Position numbers and translations under genes: made by a program | Notes under the pieces: generated by a model | What the model was told of the DNA's origin: nothing | The model's input: only the letters and a program-made list of their open reading frames with translations | Database searches by the model: none | Shown: piece by piece, positions 49,914 through 57,545 of the stretch | How positions within the stretch are numbered: the first letter of the stretch is position 1 | Layout of the letters: every line of letters starts with the position of its first letter | NCBI GenBank assembly: GCA_041664925.1 | Contig: JBAYJV010000001.1 | Location: 56,121 to 120,120 of the forward strand | Source: Minisyncoccota bacterium | GTDB taxonomy: Bacteria; Patescibacteriota; Minisyncoccia; JBAYJV01 | DNA: 64,000 nucleotides | Reading direction: 5' to 3'

Positions 49914-50079
49914 ACTTTTTAAAATTTAAAATATTTCATACTTTCTCATACTCTATCAGATTAATTAATTTTCTCAATACCTCCAAGCTGTGGATAATTG
50001 ATAAATACAATAAAAAAAGGGCTCTTGCAACCGCAAGAGCCCAAAGAAACTAAGAACTCAAAGAACAAATTAAGGAACT

Positions 50080-50095
50080 AAGTGCCTAAGCACTT
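50080..50095 (-). promoter_or_regulatory. DGR-associated hairpin directly after VR-A: 6-bp stem aagtgc/gcactt with loop ctaa
   Basis: Same hairpin at 52852-52868 after VR-B. Absent after the TR. Confidence 0.5.
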
Positions 50096-50760
50096 TAGTC
50101 GCAGAGGCACAACAGGCAACAATCGTAACCCCAGCCGCGAACGAAACAATCGAGGTTGAAGACCCAACCGCCATCCAGGCGCTGATTCACGCGCGGCACA
50201 CGGTGAGCGCCAGTTTCGTCTTTCCAGCAAGCTTCTTTCTCGTCAAGAGAAATAACCCACTTGCCTTTAGGGAATTTCTCTTTCGCCTGTTCATAGACAA
50301 CAGACAGCCCCTGAGCTCCAACAAGATATGCTCCCTGCGATTTCATGAAAGCCAATCCATCAGGAGAAGAAATCGGCGGTTTCCTGATCAAGAAGATCTT
50401 GGCTACATAGGTTTTGCCAGGAATGAGTCGATGAGTTGGATTCGCGAAGTTATCATTAGTGATTTTCTCGTTGAAATAGTTAAATTCACCGCGATGATTA
50501 TTCGCAAACAAGGCAAGCTGTGTGCTATGACTGTAGTCCAGAGGCACCTTCACCAAGAAAGTGCTCCATAGGGCAAAGCGATCATCTGGAACAGCGCCTT
50601 GGAGCAAAGCTCTCTTCAGGACCTCGTTAAGATCACCTTGACTTTTGCTCCATGCTTCTGCTGTTGCTTGCTCGATCTCGCCAGGTCGCGGCAATTGCCG
50701 AATGACACTGGCCAGAAACTCCACCCACCATCCTGAAACCTCTGGGGCTGTTCTGCTCAT
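50095..50760 (-). CDS. DGR target protein A. The C-terminal ~40 codons form variable region VR-A at ~50098-50213.
   Basis: The C-terminal 75 aa are nearly identical to target B. VR-A differs from the TR almost only at TR adenine positions. SD AAAGGAGGG before the ATG at 50760. Confidence 0.7.
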   Translation of the reverse strand: MSRTAPEVSGWWVEFLASVIRQLPRPGEIEQATAEAWSKSQGDLNEVLKRALLQGAVPDDRFALWSTFLVKVPLDYSHSTQLALFANNHRGEFNYFNEKITNDNFANPTHRLIPGKTYVAKIFLIRKPPISSPDGLAFMKSQGAYLVGAQGLSVVYEQAKEKFPKGKWVISLDEKEACWKDETGAHRVPRVNQRLDGGWVFNLDCFVRGWGYDCCLLCLCD

Positions 50761-51023
50761 AGCAGTTGTTCCCTCCTTTTCCAACTCTCTTGGCAAGCAT
50801 TGCGAGCCCTAGAGAGTTGTGATCCCGGATTGCCGGGACTTCTTTTGGCTATTAGATAGGCCGCCAAATGCCTTGCTCCCCACAACGAGAAGCGCAAAAG
50901 GCATTAAAATTAACGCTCTTTGCGCTTATTACTGTATTCATCTTTATCACGAAGAAACTACTTTCTTTCATTCTATCACACTTCAATAAAAAAATCAAGC
51001 GATTAACTTATTTTTAGAAATTA

Positions 51024-52004
51024 TTAATCAAAAATAAGCCCAATGCGTTTCCTCAATTTATAAGTATTCCCATGACTCAATAATCCTCGATAAGAAATAA
51101 TTGTTTGCGGTTCAGGGTAATTCTTTAACTTTCTAATAATTTTTCTTTTGGTTTTTGTTCTAATTTGCCGATGATATGGAAAGTGTATCCATCCTAAAAA
51201 ATCTATACCAGAAGCATGTGTTTTGATAAACATTTTTTCTTCGCGCAAATTTAATCCAAGTTTATCGTGTAAAAATTCACGGATACTTAATAGCAAAATA
51301 TCAAGATACTCTTTGTCGTCGGATAAAATTACAAAATCATCGGTATAGCGAATATAATATTTTACGCGAAGCTCTTGTTTTAAATACATATCAAAATCAT
51401 GCATATAAATATTGGCAAAAAGTTGTGAGATAATATTTCCTAAAGGCAAACCGATATTTGGACGAGTAACATAAAAACTTGCCAAAACTTTCTTTATCAG
51501 CCACATAACATTAGAATCTTCAATGTGTCTTTCTAGTATTTCAATCAATATTTTGTGATCAATGCTGGCAAAAAACTTCTTAATATCACATTTAAGCACA
51601 TAACAATTTCGCGAATTATTTTTTGATACTTTTCTCGCAAAATACCTAATCCTATTGAGCGCTTTATGGGTTCCTTTTTTCTTACGGCACGAATAAGAAT
51701 CATATATAAATTGCTTATCAAAGTACTCATATAATTCTTGGTACATCAAATGATGCAATAAACGATCGCGCACGGTTGCTTTATGAATAATGCGCGGTTT
51801 TGGATCGGAAATGCTAAACTTAAAATAAGGGCCATGCTCGTATGTTTGAAAAGCAAGAGAGCGATAAAGATCAACTATATTATCGGCAAGATTAACTTGA
51901 AAAATCATTACATCTTTTCTGTGTTTTTTGCCTCGTAAAAAACATTCCCAAGCTACAAGCAAATTTTCAATCTTTATGATATTCTTGTATTTATGGTTAA
52001 ACAT
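51024..52004 (-). CDS. Diversity-generating retroelement reverse transcriptase
   Basis: RT motifs: YVLKCDIKKFFASIDH; LPLGNIISQLFANIYM, which carries the DGR-hallmark LGxxxSQ; and YIRYTDDFVIL (YxDD). Start taken at MFNHKY. Confidence 0.8.
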   Translation of the reverse strand: MFNHKYKNIIKIENLLVAWECFLRGKKHRKDVMIFQVNLADNIVDLYRSLAFQTYEHGPYFKFSISDPKPRIIHKATVRDRLLHHLMYQELYEYFDKQFIYDSYSCRKKKGTHKALNRIRYFARKVSKNNSRNCYVLKCDIKKFFASIDHKILIEILERHIEDSNVMWLIKKVLASFYVTRPNIGLPLGNIISQLFANIYMHDFDMYLKQELRVKYYIRYTDDFVILSDDKEYLDILLLSIREFLHDKLGLNLREEKMFIKTHASGIDFLGWIHFPYHRQIRTKTKRKIIRKLKNYPEPQTIISYRGLLSHGNTYKLRKRIGLIFD

Positions 52005-52020
52005 AAATTCGCCTATATTT

Positions 52021-52407
52021 ATGATGAAACATACATTTGTTTGCGATAAATCTCCTCTTGTGCTTGCAAAAACTAAAGAAGCATACTGGATGTGGCACAA
52101 AAACTTAGTCAATATTAACCGCCTTGATCGATACACAATTGGTTCAAAAATTGATGGTATTTTTTTATCATTATTAGAATTAATTTTTAGAGCCAGTTTT
52201 GCGTATGATAAATTTGAAAAACTTTCTTTAGTTTCGCAAGCCATAGTAAAAAACGATCTCTTAAAATTCTTTTTACAAATTGGCTGGGAACAAAAAATAA
52301 TTGATCATACAAATTATGGTTTACTAATATTGTTTTTAGACGAAATCGGCAGAATGCTTGGGGGCTGGAAAAAGAATCTACGCGAAAAAACTCCTGCCAA
52401 TAAATAG
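52021..52407 (+). CDS. Accessory variability determinant (Avd)-like four-helix-bundle protein (128 aa), inverted relative to the RT and TR
   Basis: The C-terminal DEIGRMLGGWKKNLREK parallels Bordetella bAvd EVGRILGSWIARVNRK. Size and helical pattern fit. It lies between the TR and the RT. Confidence 0.6.
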   Translation: MMKHTFVCDKSPLVLAKTKEAYWMWHKNLVNINRLDRYTIGSKIDGIFLSLLELIFRASFAYDKFEKLSLVSQAIVKNDLLKFFLQIGWEQKIIDHTNYGLLILFLDEIGRMLGGWKKNLREKTPANK

Positions 52408-52424
52408 CAGGAGAAATCAAATTA

Positions 52425-52547
52425 GTGGCAGAGGCACAACAGGCAATAATTGTAATTCCAGTCGTTCTCGAAATAATTGAGGTTGAAGTTCCAATCGCCA
52501 TTCAGGTTCTGATTCATGTTCGGCACACGGTGATTGCCAGTGGCACG
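52425..52547 (-). repeat. DGR template repeat (TR)
   Basis: A non-coding third copy of the ~120-bp VR sequence. All ~27 differences to VR-B are at TR coding-strand adenines, except one next to the IMH-like end (gccac against gcgac). Confidence 0.8.
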
Positions 52548-52868
52548 TAAATTATAACATACCATCTATTCCACCAAAAGCGACGCCTGTCGCTTTTTGT
52601 ATTTTATATTGAGTCTTAATACTCACTAGTATGCTATATCGACTTGTTTGATTTTTTCATAAAAGGATGCGCTCATTCACAAGAACGTATCCGGTGAATA
52701 CCTCGCAAACTCCCTTTATGAGAACTCGATGATATGAAGCCATGACCGCATATCAAATCTAATTTCTAGATTAATTATAATATGAAAAAGGACCCTTGCA
52801 ACTGCAAGGGTCCCCAAAGAAACTAAGAACTCAAAGAACAAATTAAGGAACTAAGTGCCTAAGCACTT

Positions 52869-53516
52869 TTAGTCGCAGAGGCACAACAGGCAATAACTGC
52901 AATTCCAGCCGCCCCCGAAATAATCGAGGTTGAAGCGCCAACCGCCAACCAGGCACTGAACCATGAACGGCACACGGGGAAAGCCAGAGGCGTCTTTCCA
53001 GCAAGCGTCTTTCTCGTCAAGAGAAATAACCCACTTGCCTTTAGGGAATTTCTCTTTCGCCTGTTTATAGACAACAGACAGTCCTTGAGCTCCAACAAGA
53101 ATTGCCCTATGTTGTCTCAGAACTGCCAAATTATCTTCCGAAGAAACAACTGATCCGGAAGTAATTCCAATCAGTTTTACAGTGTAAACCTTTCCCGGAA
53201 TCAGCTTTGTAGTAACGCCAGCAAAATGTTCGTCTGTAATATCATTGTTATAGAAGACAAAATCGCTACCATGCATGCGCTTGAATTTGGCAAGCTGAGT
53301 GGCATGGCCATAGTCATCAGGCACCTTAAATGTAAAAGTGCTCATGACAAAATATCGAGGATCTATGGTTCTTAAAAACCTTTCTCTTCCTTCTTTTGTC
53401 AAACCATTAAACCACTCCCATTGTTCAAGAGTGATTTGTCCTTGCCGCGCTTTCTGTAGCGTGTCAACTAGCAGACCAGCCATTTTGGCCGCTTCTGCGC
53501 CGATGACGATTGTCAT
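52869..53516 (-). CDS. DGR target protein B. VR-B at ~52873-52994.
   Basis: C-terminus GAQGLSVVYKQAKEKFPKGKWVISLDEKDACWKD...CLLCLCD. An adenine-specific TR/VR mismatch pattern. SD AAAAAAGGAG before the ATG. The 5' flank is shared with target A. Confidence 0.7.
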   Translation of the reverse strand: MTIVIGAEAAKMAGLLVDTLQKARQGQITLEQWEWFNGLTKEGRERFLRTIDPRYFVMSTFTFKVPDDYGHATQLAKFKRMHGSDFVFYNNDITDEHFAGVTTKLIPGKVYTVKLIGITSGSVVSSEDNLAVLRQHRAILVGAQGLSVVYKQAKEKFPKGKWVISLDEKDACWKDASGFPRVPFMVQCLVGGWRFNLDYFGGGWNCSYCLLCLCD

Positions 53517-53915
53517 CGTTTTCTCCTTTTTTGGCTGTTAAAGGCCGCCAGAACCTTGCTTCTCACAACGAGAAGCGCAAAAGGCATTAAAATTAACGCT
53601 CTTTGCGCTTATCGCTATAATTGCAAAATTAAAGATAACGCTCTTTGCGCTTATCGCTATAATTGTGCAAAATCCTATTTATTTCGCATCATATTTATAC
53701 ATACCACATTATTGGTAATAAATCAAGGGTTTAAGGGTGATATGTGTATATGTGTTGATTTTTTTAATTTTATAGTTACAATTGTCAATGCGTGTTAAAA
53801 AGACACATGTTCCTAAAAAGGAGGTTTATGACTTTTCCGTCAGCGCTTTCTCCTCCAAGACTCTTTTGACGAATTGGTGTGGTGACCAACAAACAAAAGT
53901 CAAAGGAGAGATACA

Positions 53916-54332
53916 GTGGATGTGACGGAACTTCGAACCCCAGTCTTGTTCCAAGACCCTGAAGTTGAAGGAGTATCCTTTCATATTGGGTGCAATCATG
54001 GTTCTCAGGAAATAATGCTCTGTGAAAGCAGTCAACAAGCATTAATGATGAGACAAGCTCTCGAATTAGTCGGTCTCAATGTCATTCCTGGAAAAGAGAG
54101 ACTTGAAACTAATGGTGATGGAAAAAGACAATTTAAGGCCTTCCCTATTAATGTAACGCCGGGTTGCCACAGAAATGGAACAGTTGTCGTAAACTGTCAT
54201 GATCAAACTGCGGCAATAGCGCTTGAAGTTCTTGTTCGTCAACCGAAAGTTCACTTTGCGTCATTTGATGTTCTCCCTATTAAAGATAGCAGAAGAAGTA
54301 CTGGAGGAAAAAGAGTTAGTAGTCGTAGATAA
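53916..54332 (+). CDS. Hypothetical protein (138 aa; GTG start), GC-rich island gene
   Basis: AAGGAGAG sits 6 nt before the GTG. It is preceded by a 13-codon micro-ORF MTFPSALSPPRLF that has a perfect SD. Confidence 0.4.
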   Translation: MDVTELRTPVLFQDPEVEGVSFHIGCNHGSQEIMLCESSQQALMMRQALELVGLNVIPGKERLETNGDGKRQFKAFPINVTPGCHRNGTVVVNCHDQTAAIALEVLVRQPKVHFASFDVLPIKDSRRSTGGKRVSSRR

Positions 54333-56371: not shown

Positions 56372-56444
56372 CAGGGGCGGCAGGACTTGAACCTGCAACC
56401 ACTGGTTTTGGAGACCAGTACTCTGCCAATTGAGCTACGCCCCT
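56372..56444 (-). tRNA. tRNA-Trp (CCA)
   Basis: Cloverleaf aggggcg/cgcccct acceptor, anticodon loop cuCCAaa, T-loop ttcaagt. No encoded CCA. Confidence 0.85.
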
Positions 56445-56479
56445 TCAAAGTAATGAGTCTTGCTCATTACTATGGTTTG

Positions 56480-56638
56480 CTATTTTTTTGTTTCTTTGTG
56501 CAAAGTGTGTTTTCTATCCCAAGGACAATGTTTCTTTAATGATAATTTTTCTTGGATAGTTTTTTTGTTTTTTCGAGTATTATAATTTACTCTTCCGCAC
56601 TCCGTACATTTCATTTTAACAATACTTTTTTGTGGCAT
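56480..56638 (-). CDS. rpmG: 50S ribosomal protein L33 (52 aa)
   Basis: [52 protein letters not shown] carries the L33 signature. It is below the six-frame ORF length cutoff. Confidence 0.8.
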
Positions 56639-56642
56639 GTTT

Positions 56643-57095
56643 TTAATTAATTAATTTCCATTCTCCAGTTTTTAAATCTACTTCATAAATCGACACATTG
56701 GCTCCCATGTATGGATCGCTACCGGAAACTAATTTCCACATATCCTTTCCCGAGTGGAAGAAACCGATAACTTGCCATAGATCATCTTTTTTTTGAAGTA
56801 ATAATTGTCTAGTATTTTGATTATCTCCATACTCAACATACAAACGAGATTTATCTATAAGACTAAAACGGATCAGATGCCAACTTCCACCAAGTACCGG
56901 CTTTTCTGGAGAGAGTTGATTGATATTCTTTGAGATGGAATCTATCGTTTCTTTTGTTAGAGGAACACTCACTGAATTGTCTTCGCGAAATAGCGTTGAC
57001 TCTGGAGTTTCTTTTTTTATCCTACTTAAACAATAGATTGTCCCGCCAATAACCAAAATAATAATAATCAAGATAACAATATTTCTTTTTCCCAT
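56643..57095 (-). CDS. Membrane-anchored hypothetical protein
   Basis: N-terminal TM segment [14 protein letters not shown]. Confidence 0.4.
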
Positions 57096-57150
57096 TCTTT
57101 TTTTACTACAAGTATGAGCCTACTGAGGATTGTTTTTTCTTATTTGGAAC

Positions 57151-57223
57151 AAGCCCACGATCGGGATTGGACCGATGACCTCCCCCTTACCAAGGGGGTG
57201 CTCTACCAACTGAGCTACATGGG
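57151..57223 (-). tRNA. tRNA-Thr (GGU)
   Basis: Acceptor gcccatg/cgtgggc (one G-U pair), D-arm gctcagttggtagagc, anticodon stem ccccc/ggggg with loop uuGGUaa. Confidence 0.75.
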
Positions 57224-57230
57224 CCCTTGT

Positions 57231-57313
57231 ATGGGTAGGGAGGGATTTGAACCCCCGAAGCCATAAGGCGCGAGATTTACAGTCTCGTCCGATTGACCAC
57301 TCCGGCACCTACC
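57231..57313 (-). tRNA. tRNA-Tyr (GUA), long variable arm
   Basis: Acceptor gggtagg/cctaccc, anticodon loop cuGUAaa, type II variable arm, T-loop ttcaaat. Confidence 0.85.
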
Positions 57314-57350
57314 CGTTTAAGTAGCTAAGACTTTATCTAATATATAAATA

Positions 57351-57403
57351 TGCCTCGTCCGATTGACCCCTGCCTGTCGGCAAACAGGACTCCGGCACCT
57401 ACC
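57351..57403 (-). pseudogene. tRNA-Tyr 5' fragment (acceptor and D-arm) interrupted by a 20-nt CCTGCC..GGCAGG-family hairpin
   Basis: gggtaggtgccggagt[cctgtttgccgacaggcagg]ggtcaatcggacgag is otherwise identical to the 5' 35 nt of tRNA-Tyr. Confidence 0.5.
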
Positions 57404-57406
57404 CAG

Positions 57407-57447
57407 TTGGAGCCGTCCCTGAGACTCGAACTCAGAACCTACTGTTT
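57407..57447 (-). other. 3' half of a second tRNA-Thr(UGU)-like gene (anticodon-stem 3' strand, T-arm, acceptor ggacggc, encoded CCA)
   Basis: aaacagtaggttctgagttcgagtctcagggacggctcca. Its acceptor is complementary to the 5' half at 57607-57640. Confidence 0.5.
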
Positions 57448-57473
57448 ATCCCGCACCACGCTTAGTAAGTCCA

Positions 57474-57545
57474 AGCCGAGAGTGAGAATCGAACTCACAA
57501 CCTACTGTTTACAAAACAGTTGCTCTACCGTTGAGCTATCTCGGC
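57474..57545 (-). tRNA. tRNA-Thr (UGU), intact copy
   Basis: gccgaga/tctcggc acceptor, D-arm gctcaacggtagagc, anticodon loop uuUGUaa, T-loop ttcgatt. Confidence 0.8.

Follow-up and report, generated by a model that had tools for sequence, protein, structure and literature searches.

The 64,000-nt stretch of DNA analysed here (the window) belongs to a Candidatus Paceibacterota (CPR) MAG and carries a genuine and complete diversity-generating retroelement (DGR), with an RT, an Avd, a TR, two VR-bearing target genes and adenine-specific mutagenesis. Its genes and repeats are the following.

50095..50760, minus strand: target gene A (WC242_01160), 221 aa from the ATG at 50760 or 233 aa from a TTG at 50796
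50099..50214, minus strand: VR-A, the 3′ end of target A
51024..52004, minus strand: DGR RT, NCBI 'reverse transcriptase/maturase family protein', 326 aa, RVT_1 3e-26
52021..52407, plus strand (opposite to TR, RT and targets): avd, NCBI 'four helix bundle protein', 128 aa
52426..52541, minus strand: TR, in frame with both VRs, with an IMH*-like end, CTGCCAC
52869..53516, minus strand: target gene B (WC242_01180), NCBI 'hypothetical protein', 215 aa
52873..52988, minus strand: VR-B, the 3′ end of target B

The gene coordinates, the RT motifs LGNIISQ and YTDD, and the 128-aa ORF with its C-terminal sequence (...DEIGRMLGGWKKNLREKTPANK) are all present as the initial annotation described them. The three repeat copies that it recognised, two of them target-borne and one non-coding, align without gaps over ~116 nt, VR-A lying at TR minus 2327 and VR-B at TR plus 447, and no additional VR copy was found within the window. 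Mismatches were counted on the coding (minus) strand with the TR, which has 33 A in 116 nt, as reference. As had been claimed, the differences fall at TR adenines: 21 of 23 in VR-A (15 A>G, 4 A>C and 2 A>T; hypergeometric P 1e-12) and 22 of 23 in VR-B (12 A>G, 8 A>T and 2 A>C; P 1.4e-14), the latter count replacing an earlier estimate of ~27 that was too high. A comparison of the two VRs gives 23 differences, 22 of them at TR-A sites, and only 5 of the 33 TR adenines are unaltered in both. Twelve AAY codons (7 AAT and 5 AAC) are present in the TR, and none of the 32 adenines in its diversified part occupies codon position 3. The exceptions are those already named from inspection by eye, namely a C>G at TR 52427, which is common to both VRs and distinguishes IMH* from IMH, and a G>T at TR 52467 in VR-A only (plus strand C>A), for which A-mutagenesis gives no explanation and which counts against the DGR reading. 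The IMH-like end of VR-B is free of A (TGCCTGTTGTGCCTCTGCGAC) and is followed by the stop codon TAA. When related cassettes were compared, N of the CTGC-N-AC motif was found to differ among TRs, yet it is always G in VRs and is therefore never transferred, marking the 3′ boundary.

These repeats might instead be ordinary paralogous repeats or gene-conversion tracts that happen to lie beside an RT of the group II intron or retron type with no relation to them. In the NCBI and JGI annotations the RT is called 'reverse transcriptase/maturase family' or 'retron-type', its best NCBIfam match is a group II RT model, far under cut-off, and targets A and B show gene-conversion-like identity outside the VR. 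However, the best PDB relative of the RT is the Bordetella phage bRT (8ub7_A; E 2.5e-42, 148 bits), leading every group II and retron RT by ~70 bits, with 78 bits for the best of the group II RTs; LGNIISQ aligns with bRT IGSLTSQ and YTDD with YMDD, in agreement with the DGR motif [I/L]GxxxSQ and with the original assignment of this enzyme. The clade to which it belongs comprises at least 8,000 clusters. An Avd homologue adjoins the RT, as had been proposed, since the 128-aa ORF passes PF22296 (bAvd-like) with 45.2 bits against a gathering score of 40, as do 5 lineage homologues, all 6 having a hit to this family, although it falls below the cut-off of NCBIfam NF033474 DivGenRetAVD (50.2 bits, cut-off 80) and PDB sequence and profile searches found no link to bAvd. 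Domain and Rfam searches found no maturase/endonuclease domain, intron RNA or retron msr/msd, and the same cassette with A-specific TR/VR pairs occurs in many genomes. Nearly all substitutions start from TR adenines (P at most 1e-12) and codon position 3 is spared, a tabulated spectrum that refutes such a reading, to which we assign next to no credence.

The inverted avd and the two targets had been singled out as unusual, which they are not, because the TR-(avd)-RT order with inverted avd is Architecture B3, to which 90% of CPR DGRs belong (Wu et al. 2018, NAR 46:11, PMC5758913), and ~13% of DGRs have two targets. This layout is the norm for CPR bacteria, which have a clade of their own among cellular DGRs, with VRs of the C-Lec type (clade 2; Roux et al. 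2021, PMC8144416), and the inversion is identical in 12 of the 12 related cassettes examined that have both avd and RT. The cassettes L005, L008, L138 and L146 share the same order, with A-specific mismatches of 19/19, 10/10, 13/15, 17/18 and 20/21. Relative to these CPR DGRs (PMC5758913, PMC8144416), the present element has the same target-TR-(inverted avd)-RT order on the chromosome of a small CPR genome, the same placement of the VR at the C-terminus of a C-Lec-type fold, likewise no recognisable Pfam domain in the targets, and a second target; it shows no essential difference, except that here the second target comes downstream of the RT, which puts the core between the two targets, while the relatives examined have one target or two in tandem upstream. 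At a probability of roughly 0.93, we consider the locus to be a chromosomal DGR of the CPR/Patescibacteria-standard type (Architecture B3; DGR clade 2), with two paralogous targets and operating through the RNA mechanism that is proposed below.

The intergenic DNA contains the following elements, among them a structured RNA between target B and the TR (52552-52754) that the initial annotation did not remark upon.

50019..50096, minus strand: 3′ flank of VR-A (57 nt, identical to the flank of VR-B) and target A terminator (50042->50019, z -9.5)
52384..52413, minus strand: post-TR hairpin CTCCTGC-tatttattg-GCAGGAG with T6, z -3.5, terminator-like on the TR strand
52412..52429, minus strand: TR 3′ end and the next ~12 nt, GCCACTAATTTGATTTCT, predicted to pair with La
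52552..52754, minus strand: structured RNA leader directly 5′ of the TR, conserved in 13 cassettes
52639-52552, minus strand: leader stem H5, enclosing H6 (52625-52610) and H7 (52601-52572)
52657-52639, minus strand: leader A-rich strand, La
52720-52658, minus strand: leader H2-H4 domain
52754-52731, minus strand: leader helix H1
52788..52815, minus strand: intrinsic terminator of target B, 12-bp stem with T-run, z -5.1
52801->52774, minus strand: promoter-like site TTGCAA-16-TATAAT, overlapping the target B terminator
52813..52869, minus strand: 3′ flank of VR-B, 57 nt, 100% identical to the VR-A flank

Conservation of the leader structure is strong. Among 13 sequences pairing reaches 95.4%, compared with 32-50% in slid controls, and 39 of 57 pairs covary, compared with 6-13 in slid controls; the shuffle test gave 0 of 500. 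RNAalifold found compensatory changes in 39 of 64 and 33 of 49 pairs. The strand of the RNA is fixed by its many G-U pairs, and loop insertions fold into stems of their own. Against Rfam 15, 52300-52900 has no match, even with the E-value limit raised to 1. The leader goes with the TR and the DGR core, being absent after target A and at orphan targets. On the other side of the TR, the hairpin, in whose loop the avd stop codon sits on the other strand, is kept in 10 other cassettes with compensatory stem changes (TG/CA, CA/TG, CG/CG, GAC/GTC and TTCC/GGAA), and its position is that of the 'Avd-binding stem-loop just downstream of TR' of Handa et al. (bioRxiv 10.1101/2023.10.23.563531). A small hairpin had been reported after each VR and none after the TR; this holds for AAGTGC-ttag-GCACTT, which lies in the flank of each VR along with 8-nt periodic CTTAG/CTTAA repeats and is energetically weak (z -1.4 to -1.7), but the TR is itself followed by the conserved, stronger hairpin and its T-run.

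A long-range helix between La and the TR 3′ end, which would close off the TR, is moderately supported. RNAalifold predicts it from 5 sequences, although it is lost when partial sequences are added; cognate duplexes have a lower energy than non-cognate ones (-7.54 vs -6.33 kcal/mol, permutation p ~0.03), and the A/U-rich pairing beats shuffles in 8 of 11 cassettes, is weak in 3 of 11 and shows modest co-variation. H5 begins right after La and would close ~10 nt upstream of the TR, so that one continuous strand would form two adjacent duplexes with the TR looped out. In the Bordetella Sp RNA, a TR:Sp primer duplex and an upstream:Sp 'cPRT Stop' duplex are formed (Handa et al., bioRxiv 10.1101/2023.10.23.563531), and this likeness suggests that the RNA at the present locus may be a circularly permuted version of the Bordetella DGR RNA, with the bridging strand 5′ rather than 3′ of the TR. 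Such a permutation would explain how a cassette can function although an inverted avd stands where Sp would be.

We propose that a stand-alone non-coding RNA of ~380 nt is transcribed from the minus strand, roughly from 52766 to 52385, beginning at the promoter that overlaps the target B terminator and ending at the hairpin and U-run directly after the TR, these ends being placed by consensus motifs only. From 5′ to 3′ it would carry a folded domain of ~200 nt, the TR of 116 nt and the hairpin. The RT and the divergently transcribed Avd would bind this RNA and, once primed, copy the TR into cDNA with misincorporation opposite adenines; the cDNA would then take the place of VR-A or VR-B in the corresponding target gene, and the IMH-like end, which reads CTGCGAC in the VRs and CTGCCAC in the TR, would mark how far transfer extends on the 3′ side. 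As many as 33 adenine-templated positions would vary in consequence, and ~20 codons for the ligand-binding face of a C-type-lectin-like domain would be recoded.

It is also conceivable, if rather unlikely, that the TR RNA does not stand alone and that one long minus-strand transcript carries TR, antisense avd and RT, like the avd-TR-brt transcript of Bordetella, with a functional Sp equivalent downstream of the TR in antisense-avd and the leader serving as a 5′ UTR/stability element or as a regulator of target B. The RT and avd start codons are divergent and 16 nt apart, so any RT promoter would fall inside avd, and if termination at the T-run were efficient, RT transcription would be left unaccounted for, which counts against the stand-alone RNA. 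Furthermore, all DGRs studied so far have their essential structured RNA on the 3′ side of the TR, two cassettes have a T-run of no more than T4, and Handa et al. saw post-TR stem-loops and bracket duplexes in CPR DGRs when they analysed the TR with just 40 nt of upstream and 100 nt of downstream sequence (bioRxiv 10.1101/2023.10.23.563531). Against a long transcript, the post-TR hairpin and T-run are conserved and covarying in all examined cassettes, and the antisense-avd sequence beyond the T-run varies freely at synonymous sites, which we read as no second RNA-level constraint being seen there. The leader, for its part, is conserved in structure far beyond a generic UTR, accompanies the TR and not the targets, and comes after a -10 box that is kept in related cassettes and placed past the target terminator.

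The proposed stand-alone RNA sets the element apart from the BPP-1 DGR of Bordetella phage (mtd-avd-TR-brt; PDB 8UB7 series), with which it otherwise shares adenine-specific TR-to-VR transfer, an AAY-rich TR, IMH/IMH*, a small inverted repeat after the VR that is missing after the TR, an RT with [I/L]GxxxSQ and YxDD, an Avd partner, a target with a C-type-lectin fold and a stem-loop that immediately follows the TR. In the present cassette the avd is inverted and occupies the place of the BPP-1 Sp, a ~200-nt structured domain 5′ of the TR is found instead of a conserved non-coding Sp 3′ of it, and the RNA appears to end at the hairpin and U-run right after the TR; the element is also cellular rather than phage-borne and has two targets. 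The leader resembles the RT-associated RNA motifs RT-1 to RT-19, of which RT-10 corresponds to the Sp region of BPP-1 (Weinberg et al. 2017, PMC5737381), in being a conserved structured RNA beside a DGR RT that presumably serves reverse transcription, but differs from them in that 52300-52900 is without any Rfam 15 match.

In a fossil DGR the parts would remain recognisable after diversification had ceased and the VR differences would be fixed relics, a situation that we judge improbable, slightly more so than the long transcript. VR-A, VR-B and TR are identical, at consensus level, in two independent assemblies of the strain from different samples, VR-A has one non-A change, and the measured activity of CPR DGRs is below average (Roux et al. 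2021, PMC8144416). Decay is also common in the lineage: the sister species L001-L004 retains one target and has lost TR, avd and RT, and its VR, identical across 4 metagenomes, shows non-A changes and an insertion, no longer has its stop codon and is followed by a disrupted hairpin; in L132 and L133 the VR is fused to the post-TR flank; and in L135 and L140-L145 all that is left is an avd fragment of 30 aa and 20-26 nt of the TR. However, at the present locus RT, avd and both target ORFs are intact with catalytic and DGR motifs present, as are IMH, hairpin, leader and post-TR hairpin, and the TR design is perfect, with its AAY codons and no third-position A. The location of 43 of 46 mismatches at A implies little ordinary drift since the last homing events. 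The two assemblies differ over 12,384 nt by 1 SNP, synonymous and in the RT, so their separation time is too short to inform on activity, and consensus assemblies hide minority variants. The DGR may still be active.

Structure prediction, which had been suggested for the target C-terminus, models both targets as C-type-lectin-like folds. Target B has a helical N-terminal region of ~50 aa followed by this domain, VR-B being its last 40 codons; target A is a paralogue whose last third is nearly identical to that of target B and whose N-terminal part differs. The target family comprises 26 clusters with the ...CLLCLCD end and without recognisable Pfam domain. Neither a signal peptide nor a lipobox is evident in the target sequence. 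Compared with Treponema denticola TvpA, the target is much smaller (215 aa), lacks an evident signal peptide/lipobox and has the cysteine-rich CLLCLCD end, and there is no detectable sequence similarity to TvpA or to other C-type-lectin/FGE-fold DGR variable proteins. The GC content of the targets, which had been noted as GC-rich, is 0.45-0.50, above the 0.31 of RT and avd and the 0.376 of the whole window. Their shared 5′ leader also proved real: that of target A (50871..50936, minus strand) contains an imperfect palindrome, AAGCGCAAAGAGCGTTAA/TTAATGCCTTTTGCGCTT, and copies lie upstream of target B at 53554-53619, 92% identical to it, and at 53628-53665. Conservation of this leader is limited to close relatives (L001).

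The locus is a genuine diversity-generating retroelement (DGR), correctly identified in the initial annotation. Its parts lie between positions 50019 and 53665 and, in the 5′ to 3′ order of the minus strand, are as follows.

Features of the DGR region
53516-52869, minus: target B, its last 40 codons being the variable repeat VR-B (52988-52873), followed by a 57-nt flank and an intrinsic terminator
52754-52552, minus: conserved non-coding region of about 200 nt, here called the leader
52541-52426, minus: template repeat (TR), followed by a hairpin and T6
52021-52407, plus: avd, on the opposite strand
52004-51024, minus: reverse transcriptase (RT)
50760-50095, minus: target A, ending in VR-A (50214-50099), followed by the identical 57-nt flank and a terminator

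The TR, VR-A (at TR minus 2327) and VR-B (at TR plus 447) form an ungapped three-way alignment, in which 33 of the 116 TR positions are adenine on the coding strand. Each VR departs from the TR at 23 positions; TR adenines account for 21 of these in VR-A (P 1e-12) and for 22 in VR-B (P 1.4e-14). The only other differences are a C versus G at TR position 52427 in both VRs, at the 3′ ends of the repeats (IMH in the VR, IMH* in the TR), and a single G>T in VR-A. The three repeat copies with adenine-specific mismatches described in the initial annotation are thus borne out, as are the two exceptions that it named, with no others; its sole numerical slip was the figure of about 27 adenine substitutions for VR-B, which is actually 22. 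In frame, the TR contains seven AAT and five AAC codons, with none of 32 diversifiable adenines at codon position 3, and both VRs form the last 40 codons of intact ORFs. The IMH reads CTGCGAC in the VRs and CTGCCAC in the TR; among 11 cassettes this variable base differs from one TR to another and is always G in the VRs. A direct comparison of VR-A with VR-B shows 23 differing sites, 22 of them at TR adenines, so the two targets have been diversified independently, and only 5 of the 33 adenines are unchanged in both. No further copy of the VR or TR, including a third, remote VR, was found in the 64-kb window.

The 326-aa RT contains an RVT_1 domain (3e-26), and its best match among PDB sequences by phmmer is 8ub7_A, the 328-aa RT of the Bordetella phage BPP-1 (bRT; E 2.5e-42, 148 bits), an entry from the bRT-Avd/RNA cryo-EM series. 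The best scores against other PDB RTs were 78 bits for a group II intron RT and 73 bits for retron-type RTs. The motifs LGNIISQ and YTDD align with IGSLTSQ and YMDD of bRT, respectively, upholding the DGR-type motifs noted initially. By sequence comparison, then, the protein would be classed as a DGR RT, being nearer to bRT than to the RTs of group II introns or retrons and carrying [I/L/V]GxxxSQ and YxDD. RVT_1 is the only domain found in the protein; NCBIfam, which holds no DGR RT model, has RT models that all score far below their cut-offs on this protein, the group II model TIGR04416 reaching 150 bits against a cut-off of 300 and the retron models far less, and no group II or retron RNA was matched by Rfam in the window. 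We rejected a group II intron or retron assignment for want of maturase or endonuclease domains, intron RNA or msr/msd. The 128-aa product of avd scores above the gathering threshold of the Pfam family PF22296, "bAvd-like" (45.2 bits against 40), in agreement with the original avd call, and the same family was matched by all of the approximately five to six Avd homologues tried from related cassettes. With the NCBIfam model NF033474, "DivGenRetAVD", it obtained 50.2 bits, under the equivalog cut-off of 80. Neither a single-sequence search nor a six-sequence profile search of the PDB returned any Avd match, and a single-sequence AF2 model is all-helical at an unreliable pLDDT of only 44.9, so that the identification as Avd is based on the Pfam profile and gene position.

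The host belongs to Candidatus Paceibacterota; a MAG of this group at NCBI encodes the two targets, the RT and the Avd in identical form (WC242_01160 to 01180). The public record, which names the targets "hypothetical protein", the RT "reverse transcriptase/maturase family protein" and the Avd "four helix bundle protein", does not annotate the locus as a DGR. Wu et al. (2018, PMC5758913) define architecture B3 as TR-(avd)-RT, where parentheses denote reverse orientation, and found GC-rich inverted repeats after the IMH in 34%. DGRs of the CPR form a dedicated cellular clade, clade 2, with measured activity below average (Roux et al. 2021, PMC8144416). The order found here, TR, then avd on the opposite strand, then RT, in a CPR host, is that of B3. 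The inverted avd and the layout had been called unusual, but B3 is the documented CPR form, and avd is inverted directly upstream of the RT in every cassette with both genes that was fetched (11-12 relatives; those examined were L005, L008, L132, L133, L138, L146, L174, L176, L177, L178 and L179, L-numbers denoting related loci from other genomes or metagenomes). In related cassettes with both repeats readable, TR/VR mismatches fell at adenines in 19 of 19, 10 of 10, 13 of 15, 17 of 18 and 20 of 21 cases. At E ≤ 1e-30 a search with the RT returns at least 7,998 relatives, the best 120 of which share 64-74% identity and come from Paceibacterota, Patescibacteria, Vogelbacteria and Nomurabacteria. 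The cassette is thus one unexceptional case within a known and very large class, a standard CPR-type DGR with nothing new in kind. It is clean and complete, with two independently diversified targets of a small unnamed family of predicted C-type-lectin fold. The added interest beyond the initial finding is a conserved RNA domain 5′ of the TR and the permuted-RNA hypothesis to which it gives rise.

About 230 nt upstream of the TR are conserved when five divergent cassettes are aligned from the target terminator to the avd stop codon, and this region opens with a TATAAT-like box just past the target terminator. An HMM of the leader matched every cassette with readable upstream sequence and also decayed loci that lack the TR and RT; copies of the leader include the following.

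Copies of the leader
Window 52552-52754, minus
L005 6776-6987
L008 5779-5989
L138 4641-4853
L146 1021-1233
L060 483-681
L174 2770-2991
L178 2752-2958
L179 361-581

The HMM found no match after target A, at orphan targets or in IMG/VR; the leader travels with the TR and the DGR core, not with the targets. RNAalifold predicted seven helices (H1-H7) in the leader, with compensatory changes in 39 of 64 pairs when nine sequences were used and in 33 of 49 with 13 sequences. Over 57 pairs, 95.4% of alignment cells form standard pairs, as against 32-50% when the 3′ partners are slid by one to three columns, and 39 of the 57 pairs have changed on both sides, as against 6-13 in the slid controls; none of 500 shuffles reached the observed values. 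Several near-invariant G-U pairs fix the orientation, so that the structured strand is that of the TR. Variation in length is confined to hairpin loops, where it builds extra stems (in H4 of L174 and in H6 of L176 and L179). The leader had no match in Rfam 15 even at E values up to 1, including the RT-associated motifs of Weinberg et al. To our knowledge this 5′ domain has so far not been described; no description was found in the DGR papers compared.

Two further elements flank or span the TR. In each of 11 cassettes compared, a hairpin of 5-7 bp and then T4-T6 directly follows the TR, with a stem that covaries (CTCCTGC/GCAGGAG, CTCCCAC/GTGGGAG, CTCCCGC/GCGGGAG, CTCCGAC/GTCGGAG, CTTCC/GGAAG and CCCGC/GCGGG) and with the avd stop codon of the other strand in or beside its loop. 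Farther upstream, an A-rich strand of the leader that ends in near-invariant AGUCGG (La, 52657-52639) is complementary to the last bases of the TR and the next ~12 nt (52429-52412). The mean energy of this duplex is -7.5 kcal/mol for cognate and -6.3 kcal/mol for non-cognate partners (permutation p ~0.03), in 8 of 11 cassettes it is more stable than in composition shuffles, and in L138 an A-U pair has clearly given way to C-G in a compensatory manner. A long-range helix closing off the TR is probable from these comparisons, with moderate support. La passes without a break into H5 by its 5′ strand, and the 3′ strand of that stem ends about 10 nt upstream of the TR/VR homology; because La adjoins H5, one continuous strand would make two adjacent duplexes and loop out the TR between them.

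This arrangement invites comparison with the BPP-1 ribonucleoprotein, in which the Sp RNA, located 3′ of the TR, likewise makes two adjacent duplexes (Handa et al., bioRxiv 10.1101/2023.10.23.563531). In the first, Sp pairs with the TR 3′ end to form a template:primer duplex from which cDNA is primed at Sp A56; in the second it pairs with a segment just upstream of the TR, the "cPRT Stop", with the TR looped out between the two, and the TR is closely followed by a stem-loop that binds Avd (10.1101/2023.10.23.563531). Putative stem-loops and bracket duplexes were reported in 207 of 278 Avd-containing DGRs, CPR members included, in a survey limited to the 40 nt before and the 100 nt after the TR (10.1101/2023.10.23.563531). 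As in Bordetella, the CPR-type cassettes have a stem-loop right after the TR, covarying in 11 cassettes and corresponding to the BPP-1 stem-loop, and a moderately supported duplex across the TR in 8 of 11; unlike in Bordetella, the conserved structured domain lies 5′ of the TR instead of 3′. A Bordetella-type organization, with Sp downstream of the TR, would place such a domain within antisense avd, beyond the T-run. The synonymous sites of avd there vary among cassettes, with no second constraint seen, the RT-10 motif, which is the Bordetella Sp (Weinberg et al. 2017, PMC5737381), has no match, and the structured domain is 5′; that organization was not seen here.

We propose instead that the RNA of B3-type (CPR) DGRs may be a circular permutation of the Bordetella RNA in which the protein-binding and priming part stands 5′ of the TR, a tentative reading by analogy to which we assign a probability of roughly 0.4. 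According to this proposal, the bridging strand would lie 5′ rather than 3′ of the TR, La and the TR 3′ end would form the template:primer duplex, and H5, closing about 10 nt upstream of the TR, would serve as the stop. A hairpin immediately after the TR, binding Avd or acting as a terminator, would form the 3′ end of the RNA, and cDNA synthesis would start from an upstream nucleotide, to which the cDNA might also be branched. We infer the ends of such a stand-alone RNA, near 52766 and 52385, from consensus motifs only. A permuted RNA would be in keeping with an inverted avd standing in the place of Sp. The divergent start codons of RT (52004) and avd (52021) are only 16 nt apart, so that the promoter of each gene would have to lie inside the other, or the RT would be expressed from the TR RNA by transcription that passes the T-run.

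CPR-type (B3) DGRs make up a very large share of all DGRs, and the covarying ~200-nt RNA that this comparison reveals upstream of the TR accompanies an RT clade of at least 8,000 clusters. If the leader is the equivalent of Sp, it would account for priming in cassettes with inverted avd, and would provide a compact, self-contained RNA of about 380 nt for the reconstitution of a CPR DGR. As a sensitive marker, the leader could also help to locate TRs in CPR genomes, whose assemblies are often broken at DGR cassettes. Of six RT relatives picked at random, four (L175, L176, L177 and L179) have a contig end on the TR/target side no more than ~1 kb away, and DGR cassettes seem to break assemblies through their repeats or VR heterogeneity.

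The element is chromosomal rather than phage-borne. Its neighbours encode an FBP aldolase/phosphatase, a DeoC-like aldolase, glycosyltransferases and tRNAs, together with L33, EF-Ts and S2 in a syntenic relative, and these housekeeping neighbours and the conserved synteny led us to reject a phage origin. The leader pattern had 13 matches in IMG/VR, not one of which was accompanied by the leader, the RT, Avd or a target, so that the lineage is not viral. The strain was also assembled from a different sample (L007), and across 12,384 nt this second sequence differs from the present one by a single synonymous SNP in the RT (Val136); VR-A, VR-B and the TR are the same in the two consensus assemblies (1 SNP in 12.4 kb), an identity that neither shows nor excludes current activity.

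Among close relatives the DGR has been lost in three ways: by recombination of one target with the other, by fusion of VR and TR, and by truncation. The sister species (L001-L004, from JGI 3300063141 and three other samples; ~85-90% nucleotide identity) is syntenic on both sides and has one target, with no TR, avd or RT. This target (L001 6001-6660) resembles B at its 5′ end and is followed by the sequence found downstream of target A, as expected if the two targets had recombined through their near-identical 3′ parts and the DGR core had been lost in the process. In four metagenomes this gene has one and the same VR, which shows decay in the form of non-A changes, a 3-nt insertion, a stop codon change (TAA>GAA) and a broken hairpin. 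In two other loci (L132 1470-1720 and L133 4507-4757) the target runs into the post-TR flank, comprising the hairpin, T-run and antisense avd, with neither a leader nor a separate TR, which looks like VR-TR recombination deleting the intervening ~450 nt. The decayed loci L135 and L140-L145 (e.g. L142 4616-4930) have kept the leader, a TR remnant of 20-26 nt and a 30-aa avd fragment, with no RT, and the leader of L135, L140 and L142-L145 retains compensatory changes. Many members of the target family are orphans.

The VR residues are predicted, on modelling, to sit on a C-type-lectin-like (CLec/FGE) fold; Foldseek comparison of the target structure with the PDB and BFVD gave nothing significant. 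Identity between targets A and B is ~55% in the first ~150 codons, rises to 96% in the ~110 nt that precede the VR (50215-50325 versus 52989-53100) and reaches 100% in the 57-nt 3′ flank, and ~60 nt of their 5′ leaders (50871-50936 and 53554-53619) are 95-100% identical. This mosaic pattern suggests gene conversion or a recent partial duplication, and retrohoming would not explain it. We considered the shared target 5′ leader as a widely conserved regulatory RNA and rejected the idea, since the closest relative alone shares it. Both targets are preceded by an imperfect palindrome, AAGCGCAAAGAGCGTTAA/TTAATGCCTTTTGCGCTT (50886-50927, 53569-53614 and 53628-53665), with a tandem duplicate before target B; L001, the closest relative, is the only one to have kept the palindrome, which may act as an operator or as a 5′-UTR hairpin. 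More distant members of the target family have instead a short hairpin, YYGGCAGAWYCYRG, ~40 nt ahead of the start codon. The GC content of the target genes is 0.45-0.50 (0.43-0.48 outside the VRs), compared with 0.31 for RT and avd and a window average of 0.376.

The 3′ flanks of the VRs (50040-50096 and 52813-52869, minus strand) contain CTTAG/CTTAA motifs spaced by 8 nt or multiples thereof, a period that puts successive TAGs in all three frames. The hairpin after each VR in the initial annotation consists of the first two of these repeats paired with each other. The motifs occur as well in the target 3′ flanks of L001, L005, L008, L009, L131, L146, L147 and L149, at a density of 1.69 per 75-nt flank against 0.2 in shuffles, and many target homologues end in CD(L/E)SA, their stop codon being the first TAG of the flank repeats.

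A scan of genome contigs with a degenerate IMH pattern returned 120 loci, nearly all by chance, the only real relatives being L060, L084 and L118. Contigs of MAGs labelled "uncultured Gammaproteobacteria bacterium" carry a CPR-type cassette at L008/L084 (CAZRQU010000019.1, L084 being the L008 contig) and L118 (CAZZBC010000004.1), a label that probably reflects mis-binning or mislabelling. Beside the element, a 138-aa ORF without Pfam or NCBIfam match (53916-54332, plus strand) separates target B from the DeoC-like gene, and the sister species has a 150-aa ORF in the equivalent position (L001 5232-5684). A cluster of four tRNAs, Trp-CCA, Thr-GGT, Tyr-GTA and Thr-TGT, lies at 56372-57545 on the minus strand.
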